Positions 1 to 2,553 of a stretch of DNA of 5,287 nucleotides are shown piece after piece. The position numbers and the translations under genes were made by a program. The first letter of the stretch is position 1. Every line of letters starts with the position of its first letter. Where the stretch lies: the IMG/VR virus record IMGVR_UViG_2681813269_000005. One strand, written 5' to 3'. The stretch comes from a virus (taxonomy: Duplodnaviria > Heunggongvirae > Uroviricota > Caudoviricetes). The notes under the pieces were generated by a model. It ran no database searches. It saw nothing but the letters and a program-made list of their open reading frames with translations, and was not told where the DNA came from.

Positions 1-432
1 CAGAAAAGCACACCCAAAGCCGAATGCGCCGGGTATCGCCAGACGGCCTTTTGTCCGGTCGTAAATGTCGCTCTGTGCTTCCATCGTGGCCGCACTTTTC
101 AGCCCCAGATTATCCCGGGACTTCTGTTGTGCCTTTTCGCCTGCTGCTGCGATTTCAGACAGATGGTTAGCCGTTTTCAGAGTGCCGGTCAGCGCAGCAT
201 CAATGTCATTTTTGGCCTGCTCTGCTGCGCGGGCATAACCTGCGGCTGCCGCCACATCCTGCGCCGTCTGCTGTGCGTTTCCGGCTGCGGCCCCGGCGCT
301 CTGCTGCGCCTGCGCCACCATTTCCTCAAAGCGTTTGACGACATCCGGTTTCAGGTCGCCCTCATCAGGAGCAATCAGAAAGTCATTCAGCGTGCCGGGC
401 TTTGAGTCGTCGTATACAGCAATGTCGCCAAC
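1..432. repeat. direct repeat copy 1 (432 bp, identical to 1909-2340); homology continues at ~74% identity over 433-564
   Basis: Line-by-line comparison of 1-432 with 1909-2340 found no mismatch. 433-564 vs 2341-2472 shows about 34 mismatches in 132 nt with no indels. Confidence 0.95.
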
Positions 433-564
433 GTTGTACTCGTTGTGCCAGCCCGGTTTCAGATACACACCATATTTTCCAGTCCGCGCATGGAAACAGT
501 ATTCACCATCGTTTCCTGTCATCACATCAGCAACAGTGTGCATCACCACTTCCGGGGTGTTTAC
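1..564 (-). pseudogene. 5'-truncated side tail fibre gene (paralog A of the 1285..2553 gene); first ~27 codons and start codon missing, remainder continues beyond window start
   Basis: Minus-strand frame is open across 1..564 and in register with the 1285..2553 gene. 1-432 is identical to 1909-2340; 433-564 encodes VNTPEVVMHTVADVMTGNDGEYCFHARTGKYGVYLKPGWHNEYNVGDI, a diverged version of residues 28-75 of the full copy. Upstream of 564 the frame runs into the IS66 end and hits a stop at 607-609 with no ATG/GTG/TTG in between. Confidence 0.6.
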
Positions 565-900
565 CGTAAGCGTGCAGCAAGAACCGTATTGACGGGAATG
601 TGTTATTCAGTCGGCAGTGCTACGCGCCAGGGGAGCAGTTCGCCGACCCGGTTTATCGGCCAGTCGGCTATGACGTCAAGGACATAGCGGAGGTAGCTTT
701 CTGGCTCCACTCCGTTCAGTTTGCACGTCCCGATCAGGCTGTACAGCAGCGCTCCCCGCTCTCCTCCATGATCCGAACCGAAGAACAGGTAGTTTTTGCG
801 GCCCAGACTGACCATCCGCAACGCATTTTCAGCGATGTTATTGTCCGCCTCAGCCCAGCCATCATCTGCATAGTACGTCAGCGCCGGCCACTGGTTCAGG
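565..900 (-). mobile_element. IS66-family insertion sequence remnant: 3' end of tnpC (last ~98 codons) plus the terminal repeat end; inner boundary approximate
   Basis: C-terminal 98 aa of ORF 603..1334 (LNQWPALTYYADDGWAEADNNIAENALRMVSLGRKNYLFFGSDHGGERGALLYSLIGTCKLNGVEPESYLRYVLDVIADWPINRVGELLPWRVALPTE) match my recollection of the conserved IS66-family TnpC C-terminus. GTAAGCG at 565-571 lies 38 bp past the stop and exactly where homology to the other tail fibre copy ends; as I recall, IS66-family ends begin GTAA. Inner boundary (~900-940) is estimated by eye. Confidence 0.6.
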
Positions 901-1274
901 GCAGTTTGTGCTGTGACAGATTTTGCCAGCATGACTACCGGGGACAGGCGGCCCAGTGAGTTGGGGCCAGCATTCCAGATACGACCGTTCCATTCAAACG
1001 TGAACGGCTTCGCCTCCTGTTCTGTGCGCCATGCTTCAATTTCCTGACGTCTGGCCTCTCTGGCCGCTTCCAGCATTTCTGGTGTCACAGTGAATGGGGC
1101 TATCTCACCCCATTTGCCACTTTGCAGTTCCTGCCAGATTCGCTGACCCGTCGGTGCGACATCATCAGCGGTGGCTGTGTAGGGGACTGCCTGGTCCCTG
1201 TCGTCAAAAAAAACGTCACAGTCTACTGCGCCACTTTCGGTATAACGGGGATTAATGATTTTTTTAATTTCCAC
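603..1274 (-). CDS. chimeric ORF: tail-fibre assembly chaperone-like N-terminal part (DUF4376-like motif) fused in frame to the C-terminal fragment of an IS66-family TnpC transposase; probably non-functional
   Basis: Six-frame ORF 603..1334. N-terminal ~145 aa contain VTPEMLEAAREARRQEIEAW...PFTFEWNGRIWNAGPNSLGRL, which resembles DUF4376-type tail fibre chaperones and sits directly after a tail fibre gene. I prefer the GTG start at 1272-1274, preceded by GAGGAA (1281-1286) with a 6-nt spacer, over the ATG at 1334, which overlaps the upstream gene by 50 nt and has no Shine-Dalgarno. Confidence 0.55.
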   Translation of the reverse strand: MEIKKIINPRYTESGAVDCDVFFDDRDQAVPYTATADDVAPTGQRIWQELQSGKWGEIAPFTVTPEMLEAAREARRQEIEAWRTEQEAKPFTFEWNGRIWNAGPNSLGRLSPVVMLAKSVTAQTALNQWPALTYYADDGWAEADNNIAENALRMVSLGRKNYLFFGSDHGGERGALLYSLIGTCKLNGVEPESYLRYVLDVIADWPINRVGELLPWRVALPTE

Positions 1275-1284
1275 GGTGCATTCC

Positions 1285-2553
1285 TCACGATGTGCGAATA
1301 AAAAGCCCGGGCATTGCGCCAGAGACATGAGCATCCGGCACCCCGGACAGGGCGCTATATGACCCCGGTAATGAATGCTCTGAACATCCCGTAATGAAAA
1401 ATTGTGGGGATGCTATATACGTTCCGGTGGGAGTACTGGGCACTGAAATCCCCACCGGTCCCAGTCGTGAGCCTCTGTATGACTGCCCCCTGACAAGTCT
1501 GATGACTTTATCACCGTCAGCTTCTCCCTGGTACGCAGCAATAATCAGCCCGCCAATGTCAGGGTCTCCCCATCTGTTGCAGACAGAGCTCGCCACGATT
1601 CTGTAAATAATATCTTCTGTGGTTATATTTATTTTCACCCAGCCAGTCAGTCTGGATATGGGCCAGTAGCAGTAGCGGGTGTGATAAATGGGGCCGTTAA
1701 TGCCGTAAAAAGTAAGGGATTTGGCTCTGTACCTCGGTTCTGTTGTCTCAGGGCGTGCATCAGTCCACCGGATGCTGAGCACCCCTTCAAACCGTGTGTC
1801 GGGTATGATGATGTCGTAGGGGCCAGCAACGGAATATTCACCTGGCAGCGCATTCCTTACCCAGGCCAGGAAATCACTCTTAGTGTCAAAACGGATAACA
1901 TCTTCAGGCAGAAAAGCACACCCAAAGCCGAATGCGCCGGGTATCGCCAGACGGCCTTTTGTCCGGTCGTAAATGTCGCTCTGTGCTTCCATCGTGGCCG
2001 CACTTTTCAGCCCCAGATTATCCCGGGACTTCTGTTGTGCCTTTTCGCCTGCTGCTGCGATTTCAGACAGATGGTTAGCCGTTTTCAGAGTGCCGGTCAG
2101 CGCAGCATCAATGTCATTTTTGGCCTGCTCTGCTGCGCGGGCATAACCTGCGGCTGCCGCCACATCCTGCGCCGTCTGCTGTGCGTTTCCGGCTGCGGCC
2201 CCGGCGCTCTGCTGCGCCTGCGCCACCATTTCCTCAAAGCGTTTGACGACATCCGGTTTCAGGTCGCCCTCATCAGGAGCAATCAGAAAGTCATTCAGCG
2301 TGCCGGGCTTTGAGTCGTCGTATACAGCAATGTCGCCAACACAGTACTCGTCGCGCCAGTCCCGTTTCAGATACACGCAATATTTTCCGACCTGTGCCTC
2401 AAACGAATATTCACCGTTATTTCCGGTCACTACATCAGCCCTGGTACGCATCACCACTTCTGAGGTGTTTACACGGGATTTCAGAATAATCTGGCATCCG
2501 GACATGGGGATGCCTGCGCCATCAGTCAGCGCACCTGATATCACTACAGACAT
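1285..2553 (-). CDS. side tail fibre protein, lambda Stf-like N-terminal domain (paralog B, complete ORF, 422 aa)
   Basis: N-terminus MSVVISGALTDGAGIPMSGCQIILK...VYDDSKPGTLNDFL parallels lambda Stf (MAVKISGVLKDGTGKPVQNCTIQLK...VYEDSQPGTLNDFL). It is followed by an Ala/Gln-rich shaft segment (EMVAQAQQSAGAAAGNAQQTAQDVAAAAGYARAAEQA) and a ~200-aa C-terminal domain I cannot assign. ATG at 2551-2553, TGA at 1285-1287. Confidence 0.8.
   Translation of the reverse strand: MSVVISGALTDGAGIPMSGCQIILKSRVNTSEVVMRTRADVVTGNNGEYSFEAQVGKYCVYLKRDWRDEYCVGDIAVYDDSKPGTLNDFLIAPDEGDLKPDVVKRFEEMVAQAQQSAGAAAGNAQQTAQDVAAAAGYARAAEQAKNDIDAALTGTLKTANHLSEIAAAGEKAQQKSRDNLGLKSAATMEAQSDIYDRTKGRLAIPGAFGFGCAFLPEDVIRFDTKSDFLAWVRNALPGEYSVAGPYDIIIPDTRFEGVLSIRWTDARPETTEPRYRAKSLTFYGINGPIYHTRYCYWPISRLTGWVKINITTEDIIYRIVASSVCNRWGDPDIGGLIIAAYQGEADGDKVIRLVRGQSYRGSRLGPVGISVPSTPTGTYIASPQFFITGCSEHSLPGSYSALSGVPDAHVSGAMPGLFIRTS
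1909..2340. repeat. direct repeat copy 2 (432 bp, identical to 1-432), internal to the complete side tail fibre gene
   Basis: Same comparison as copy 1; the repeat period is 1908 bp. Confidence 0.95.

Follow-up and report, generated by a model that had tools for sequence, protein, structure and literature searches.

Two side tail fibre paralogs on a short Shigella sonnei contig: a mosaic gene family and a probable scaffolding join

The window and its two side tail fibre paralogs

The window analysed here is the whole 5287-nt stretch of DNA of IMG/VR record IMGVR_UViG_2681813269_000005, and it is the entire contig CXNR01000237.1 (5287 bp) of the Shigella sonnei short-read draft GCA_001256515.1. 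It carries two paralogs of a lambda Stf-like side tail fibre gene (stf), named here copy A and copy B, which the original prediction described as a tandem pair with a perfectly identical core. The two paralogs themselves are real, whereas their adjacency is probably an artefact of scaffolding across a collapsed repeat of about 1.45 kb. On the minus strand the order is baseplate J/gp47, gp48, a fibre gene, tfa, the B-type stf gene (stfB) and the first 143 codons of a DUF4376 gene. The list of open reading frames (ORFs) of the window holds 43 entries, and the Pfam scan covered seven of them only. The features on which the argument turns, including a remnant of an insertion sequence (IS), are the following.

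1 to 565, minus strand: copy A, a 5'-truncated A-type stf paralog that extends from the third base of codon 27 to codon 215, where it runs off the contig end; codons 1-27 are gone
1 to 432, minus strand: shared block, the first 432 nt of an stf/DUF4376 repeat of about 1.45 kb present at at least three S. sonnei loci
433 to 565, minus strand: A-type variable patch of the N-terminal domain, codons 28-71, with 34 mismatches to 2341-2472 plus one at 565
566 to 903, minus strand: ISEc22-like, IS66-family right-end remnant, with GTAAGCG at 566-572, the last ~100 tnpC codons and a stop at 603-605
903 to 904, no strand: probable scaffolding join of two assembly contigs, with a scaffold N at the same base in six sister assemblies
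904 to 1334, minus strand: first 143 codons of the DUF4376 gene, which may encode a fibre chaperone; it lacks its 3' 193 nt and matches PF14301 weakly
1285 to 2553, minus strand: copy B, an intact B-type Stf-like side tail fibre gene of 422 aa, recognised as an ORF with PF08400 over residues 1-131
2341 to 2472, minus strand: B-type variable patch, codons 28-71, delimited by exact comparison of the copies and by A/B comparisons in E. coli and S. sonnei

Extent of the repeat

When the window is compared exactly with itself at a shift of 1908 bp, 1-432 and 1909-2340 are identical at 432 of 432 positions. Identity drops to 74.2% (34 mismatches) between 433-564 and 2341-2472, and past 564 it is 21-26%, that is, random. 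The two copies share one minus-strand frame, in which the identical block is codons 72-215 and the diverged block codons 28-71. The original prediction gave the 432-bp identity, the diverged block at about 74%, the frame, the codons and the end of homology at 564/2472, and all of these hold, with no mismatch inside 1-432. An exact repeat of 432 nt is far beyond chance.

Identity stops at position 1 because the contig stops there. The end of homology at 564/565 is due to an IS66-family terminal repeat, which starts at 566 and cuts copy A at codon 27/28. The sequence from 566 onwards (GTAAGCGTGCAGCAAGAACC...) is the ISEc22 terminal inverted repeat, and ISEc22 ends at many unrelated E. coli sites match the segment 558-902 at 99% identity. 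Comparison of three unrelated E. coli insertion sites places the start of ISEc22 at GTAAGCG. The 338 nt of 566-903 encode the last ~100 residues of TnpC, with matches to PF03050 and PF13817. The set of features that marks a complete ISEc22 (tnpA-tnpB-tnpC, two ends and an 8-bp target duplication) is not present, so this is a remnant and not an active element. As a result of the IS66 insertion, copy A is a 5'-truncated stf gene without its first 27 codons, and an in-frame stop lies directly upstream of codon 28.

The domain matches agree with this description. PF08400 (phage_tail_N, lambda Stf-like) is found above the gathering score in copy B with 212.6 bits over residues 1-131. The fragment of copy A scores 174.7 bits over residues 2-105, corresponding to profile positions 29-132, as befits a truncated gene. 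The IS66 remnant, the truncated chaperone-like ORF (DUF4376) and the lambda-Stf-like N-terminal domain named in the original prediction are all confirmed by Pfam. At all related loci the DUF4376 gene overlaps the 3' end of stf, and its position suggests a putative role as a fibre chaperone.

Home loci of the paralogs

The two copies were traced to separate places in S. sonnei. In what follows, L-numbers denote the genomic loci or contigs compared; L003-L011 are B loci of S. sonnei and L024 is the A locus. The exact protein of copy B occurs in 723 assembly-collection blocks, complete S. sonnei chromosomes among them. The segment 904-5287 of the window is 99.9% identical to a Mu-like prophage remnant adjoining smpB in S. 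sonnei genomes. Similarly, the DUF4376 fragment is 99.95% identical to complete S. sonnei genomes, up to position 11650 of L010. The right part of the window faithfully represents the distal tail module of a decayed Mu-like prophage beside ssrA/smpB. At ten places in S. sonnei records of 4.6-5.0 Mb, DUF4376 of the B locus is intact in all ten and is followed by smpB or, in two cases, by another prophage. To a distance of 10 kb from the B locus, IS66 sequence is absent at the ten places read in these large assemblies.

The home of copy A was reached through a model search with its truncated protein. The search led to P0248, a 340-aa S. sonnei protein that starts at Met35 of the A-type sequence and is encoded on the 43.6-kb draft contig L024, where the truncated stf gene was called from Met35. 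Four near-identical members of the P0248 cluster sit on contigs of 43.7-44.1 kb, of unread gene content, from other S. sonnei drafts. In L024, the one draft contig in which the context of the A locus was read, the order is a Mu-like prophage (gp45-48, fibre, Gin-like invertase, mom), the IS66 remnant, the truncated stf, a complete DUF4376 gene and ipaH. L024 matches the segment 255-903 of the window, including copy A at 255-565, at 100% identity. Its ISEc22-like tail has 462 nt and extends upstream beyond the breakpoint of the window. Another A-type gene, P0032 from a different assembly, turned out to be uninformative on context, and P0175, an IS66 C-terminal fusion, was set aside as belonging to an unrelated island.

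Some details of L024 were noted in passing. The IS66 remnant is composite: at 9395-9537, ahead of the ISEc22 tail of 462 nt, stands a fragment that shares only 76% identity with tnpB/tnpC of ISEc22. The remnant contains a 152-aa ORF in which the N-terminus of TnpC is fused to its C-terminus. An apparent in-frame deletion of 144 nt (48 codons) in the stf shaft, between QQTAQD and xLGLKS, is present at about 10289 of L024 and also in P0251; it occurs in A-type and B-type copies in several drafts and may be either genuine or one more product of repeat collapse.

The repeat recurs, at 97.5% identity, at a third locus: the Mu-like prophage L026 is more complete and has a 467-aa stfC, DUF4376, com and mom. 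Together with the first ~430 nt of DUF4376, stf from nt ~238 on forms a near-identical repeat of about 1.45 kb at no fewer than three prophage loci. In L001, L002, L017 and L024 an ipaH gene (ipaHe, ipaHb and others) stands on the opposite strand directly after the stf-DUF4376 module, and in L026 com and mom occupy the place where other loci carry ipaH. The module and ipaH seem to travel together as cargo.

The junction between the copies

Within the window, the junction at 903/904 is the sole link between copies A and B. On the DUF4376 side the sequence matches known loci through '...GTCACAGCACAAAC', ending '...CACAAAC' / '...GCACAAAC'. The next base is G in the nine B loci and A in the A locus. 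The base equivalent to 903 is the first of three single-nucleotide polymorphisms (SNPs) between the paralogs within 16 nt.

The site was read in six sister assemblies of the same project series (L027-L032). All six have a scaffold N at the equivalent of window position 903 ('...GCACAAAC N GATGCCGAT...'), and the sequence after the N begins GATGCC. The single N replaces 15 nt of the SNP cluster (GCATATGGCGTGGGG), for example at position 4427 of L028. The sister contigs then continue with the 3' end of DUF4376 and smpB. In two of them, L028 and L029, the whole B module is present, and 4384 nt align collinearly with the window at 99.95-99.98% identity. The window has the A-locus alleles at 987 and 962, as the sister contigs do. 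Since the N falls on the same base in the sister assemblies, this pipeline reproducibly ends a contig at '...CACAAAC', and the window differs only in the contig that was attached there. In total, 21 contigs bear the same 202-aa variant of DUF4376. The deposited 202-aa protein (P0123, WP-type records) is an assembly artefact and not a natural allele.

Other observations point in the same direction. The junction creates a fused ORF of 241 aa, DUF4376 joined to the IS66 TnpC tail, and among ~15 billion proteins this ORF forms a cluster with a single member, from CXNR01000237.1. In another S. sonnei draft (L022) the same B locus is joined to the same segment of IS66 tail and copy A through a different junction, which includes 31 nt from an IS3-family element and an N. 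The second junction is an evident gap-closing artefact and shows that the pipeline makes such joins. Neither junction was found in any complete E. coli genome. The IS66/stfA junction has no match in the representative genomes of GTDB, where Shigella is not expected to be kept as a separate species. At 3225-3256 of L022, codon 150 of stfB is joined to the IS66 tail, which gave rise to a deposited chimeric 'tail fiber protein' (P0028). The end of P0029, from a contig of 378 bp, resembles what is presumably translated sequencing-adaptor sequence.

From these coincidences we infer mis-scaffolding. At 903/904 the scaffolder would have attached a second contig, one from the locus at which the ISEc22-type IS66 remnant adjoins copy A, with DUF4376 and ipaH after it. 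Such a join would be possible if the assembly graph collapses the repeat, which at about 1.45 kb would exceed the usual insert of short reads. The gap of 1 nt may have been filled with a T, which is the true IS66 base there in L024, or the contigs may have been abutted directly. The ends of the contig are compatible with this: the right end lies in IS1 and the left end inside the stf repeat, and for both ends to lie in repeats is expected for a short-read draft of an IS-rich genome. Reference chromosomes of Shigella carry 229-348 IS copies each and are frequently rearranged (PMC7373316). One idea about the left end, that it too falls at a paralog SNP, was abandoned, as the nearest difference from stfC in L026 is 72 nt further on. 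If the join is artefactual, the same assembly should hold a contig starting near 'GATGCCGATAATCAG...' and running into smpB.

Several points weigh against a scaffolding artefact. The join in the window is clean and contains no N, unlike that in the sister contigs. The placement of the contig with IS66 and copy A downstream of the repeat is unexplained from first principles. On the IS66 side the remnant of L024 runs uninterrupted through the breakpoint (-337/-338), and all that marks the spot is a T/C difference from the canonical ISEc22. Finally, other IS66 copies in S. sonnei could not be shown.

The tandem could instead be real in this isolate and have arisen by illegitimate recombination between DUF4376 codon 143, in the prophage on the ssrA side, and IS66 -337, leaving direct repeats 1908 bp apart that are able to recombine. 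This is unlikely. In its favour, the junction has no N or other irregularity and leaves the reading frame of tnpC open, a 7-nt GCATATG adjoins both breakpoints, and the genus has IS-rich chromosomes that often rearrange. The breakpoint coincides both with the scaffold N of six sister assemblies and with a paralog SNP, for which the chance is estimated at ~1% for a random breakpoint. The fused ORF is present on one contig only. A microhomology-mediated deletion at the common GCATATG motif was rejected: the junction is 5 nt short of the expected product. Recombination between the repeats would also yield the same protein, the C-termini being identical.

A second alternative, which we regard as highly improbable, is that the stretch between IS66 -337 and DUF4376 codon 143 was duplicated in tandem within the A locus, with a period of 1908 bp, and that this produced a genuine junction. 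The B contig would then have been threaded in via the collapsed repeat, and the true neighbours would be two A copies. The period of 1908 bp does equal the length of that segment, as expected of such a junction, and the A-locus SNPs at 987 and 962 stand just before it. The A-like alleles at 987 and 962 are, however, also on the L027-L032 contigs that run into smpB, and so they are not specific to the A locus. The coincidence with the scaffold N applies here as well, and the junction is in no other assembly.

With scaffolding across the collapsed repeat as the preferred reading, the earlier description of tandem paralogs stands in part: the paralogs exist, and their juxtaposition falls on a base where sister assemblies have a scaffold N. 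The original prediction had itself raised the possibility that the duplication is an assembly artefact, and the assembly evidence largely points that way for the juxtaposition, though not for the existence of the paralogs.

The mosaic boundary in stf

Intact A-type and B-type stf genes are found in separate prophages of enteroinvasive E. coli. L002 has a B-type gene by ipaHe, L017 of the same strain has an A-type gene by ipaHb, and L016 is also A-type. Compared base by base, the A-type and B-type genes of complete E. coli genomes differ at 38-39 sites within gene nt 42-237 and at no more than 3 sites within nt 238-700. Beyond nt 700 each 30-nt window is 96-100% identical to the gene end, with the exception of one window containing an indel in L016. 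In S. sonnei L022 copies A and B differ at the same sites up to nt 237 and show 0 differences over nt 238-772. The A-type patch alleles are present in L016, L017 and L022, and A and B are identical over the shared block in L022 and L024 too. The same boundaries are thus seen in E. coli FDAARGOS_944, E. coli O121 and S. sonnei.

Within the patch there are 0.53-0.79 synonymous substitutions per synonymous site (dS), against 0 in codons 80-140. The ratio of the nonsynonymous rate (dN) to dS is ~0.28, and the A patch of the window has dN 0.22 and dS 0.79. Such a high dS in the patch indicates old divergence, not targeted mutagenesis. No reverse-transcriptase-like ORF or template repeat of a diversity-generating retroelement was noticed in the ORF and repeat lists of the window, though no formal test for one was made and the Pfam scan covered seven ORFs. 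The stf genes are mosaics: a patch of ancient divergence near the N-terminus (nt ~42-237, within the attachment domain PF08400) is set in homogenised sequence. The sequence beside the patch would be kept virtually identical among the paralogs by recombination or gene conversion. We infer conversion as the homogenising force. The boundary is family-wide, older than this genome and independent of the adjacency of the copies, and it is a phenomenon already known.

The original prediction explained the sharp boundary by recent gene conversion or a mosaic recombination joint rather than gradual divergence. A mosaic joint is borne out by the contrast between dS 0.53-0.79 and 0.0, but a recent event between neighbours is not, as the same patch separates L002 from L016/L017 and recurs in L022. 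Specifically, conversion between adjacent copies that erased divergence over codons 72-215 and stopped at codon 71/72 is very improbable. Some exchange between paralogs does happen. Of the A-type SNPs, the two that lie most distally, at gene nt 234 and 237 (window 412 and 409), show the A-type base in L022 and the E. coli A-type genes, but the B-type base in the window and in L024. In L012, a large S. sonnei assembly, the DUF4376 gene of the B locus has A-locus-type alleles at five consecutive paralog SNPs (11567-11666), followed by B-type ones. Yet the boundary moves by 24 nt only, and the downstream identity of 100% is equal where copy A is purely A-type (L022). Near-identity downstream is also seen between E. 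coli prophages, the adjacency it would exploit is unneeded and probably nonexistent, and a collapsed short-read repeat would look identical anyway.

The tract in L012 is either gene conversion between dispersed modules or a polishing artefact. Together with the boundary shift it fits occasional conversion between dispersed copies, and polishing or consensus effects in repeats are also possible. A bolder proposal, which we put forward tentatively and hold to be somewhat less probable than not, is that ongoing gene conversion of the stf-DUF4376 module, often with ipaH, keeps the copies in at least three decayed Mu-like prophages of one Shigella chromosome virtually identical, while a diverged patch of ~65 codons escapes. 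The patch may escape perhaps since it docks each fibre to a different type of baseplate. If such concerted evolution is true, the 24-nt shift of the boundary between isolates, the L012 tract and the A-like alleles at 987 and 962 would be its traces.

Fibre tips and the proposed deletion

The original prediction further proposed that a RecA-dependent deletion of 1908 bp between the direct repeats would swap the fibre tip in one direction, and it called for a comparison of the C-terminal domains. That comparison revealed no difference: the C-terminal 200+ residues of P0248 match copy B at the protein level, and copy B of the window has 0 mismatches to the A locus L024 over 1115 nt. Even in a genuine tandem, recombination would fuse the N-terminus of copy B to a distal part of copy A no different from its own, and so give back the same protein with an unchanged fibre tip. 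The proposed swap is also contradicted by the probable scaffolding join and by the decay of the prophage. An invertible segment was considered and rejected, as the window has direct repeats instead of inverted ones and lacks an invertase. Among its 43 ORFs none was noticed to be of resolvase type, and the seven scanned against Pfam gave no resolvase match. With identical fibre tips and a defective prophage, neither phase variation nor a switch of host range is implied.

Remaining genes of the window

The rest of the window belongs to the tail module of the B-locus prophage and ends in an insertion sequence.

2577 to 3122, minus strand: tail fibre assembly gene (Caudo_TAP, tfa), whose codon 17 is a premature stop; restarting at the next start codon gives an ORF of 2577-2972
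3125 to 4177, minus strand: Mu-type tail fibre gene of 346-350 aa, recognised as an ORF and by Pfam
4152 to 4742, minus strand: Mu gp48-like (YmfQ) baseplate protein, with a PF10076 match
4742 to 5239, minus strand: baseplate J/gp47 gene interrupted by IS1, C-terminal portion, with a PF04865 match
5240 to 5287, no strand: first 48 nt of an IS1 terminal inverted repeat at the contig end

The sequence GGTGATGCTGCCAACTTACTGAT... at 5240-5287 is what we take to be an IS1 end. E. coli matches to the window end at 5239, and in complete S. sonnei genomes the match to the window stops no more than 8 nt from an annotated IS1 transposase gene in baseplate J. The IS1 element occupies the same site in baseplate J in complete S. 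sonnei genomes. The stop at codon 17 of tfa is at 3074-3076, and E. coli L002 has an intact tfa of 181 aa. The prophage is defective, since IS1 interrupts baseplate J and tfa has a nonsense codon. The Mu-type fibre gene has ~170 nt fewer at 3397-3432 than its 402-aa homologue in E. coli FDAARGOS_944 (L002 6491-6694).

Significance

These data call for caution in reading short draft contigs. Tandem paralogs with a perfect core in a draft of an IS-rich genome can arise by scaffolding across a collapsed repeat, and the 100% identity of such a repeat is no independent evidence of recent conversion. Shigella and enteroinvasive E. coli contain several near-identical stf-DUF4376 modules, often with ipaH, in different Mu-like prophage remnants. 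The copies can be told apart by a swapped N-terminal patch, which is textbook tail-fibre mosaicism.

Comparison with known systems

Misjoins induced by repeats in short-read drafts of IS-rich genomes are the closest parallel to the junction. The contig ends lie in IS1 and stf repeats, the join falls on a graph branch point that carries an N in the sister assemblies, and the repeat of about 1.45 kb would exceed a typical short-read insert. The join of the window has no N and therefore goes unmarked in the record.

The fibre switches of Mu (G/Gin), P1 (C/Cin) and e14 (P/Pin) also combine alternative fibre segments with a constant part, and a Gin-like invertase with an oppositely oriented tfa lies upstream of copy A in L024. 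In contrast to these systems, the repeats of the window are direct, no invertase accompanies them and the distal parts are identical.

Chromosomal ipaH genes in prophage remnants of Shigella and enteroinvasive E. coli resemble the present case in that the stf-DUF4376 module precedes ipaH in four of the loci compared (L001, L002, L017 and L024). The window differs in being without ipaH, and the locus of copy B runs to smpB or, in the two cases given above, to another prophage.

Modular tail fibre genes are known from lambda (Stf), P2 (H), Mu (S) and P1 (S), and mosaic tail fibre genes of temperate coliphages were reportedly described by Haggard-Ljungquist and colleagues in 1992 and by Sandmeier in 1994. 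The genes considered here share with them the PF08400 N-terminus, the shaft and tip, a putative downstream chaperone and breakpoints near a domain border, with anciently diverged modules standing beside identical ones. They are distinguished by the segment that is exchanged, which is a short N-terminal patch of ~65 codons and not the receptor-binding tip, and by their residence in decayed Mu-like prophages with ipaH cargo.

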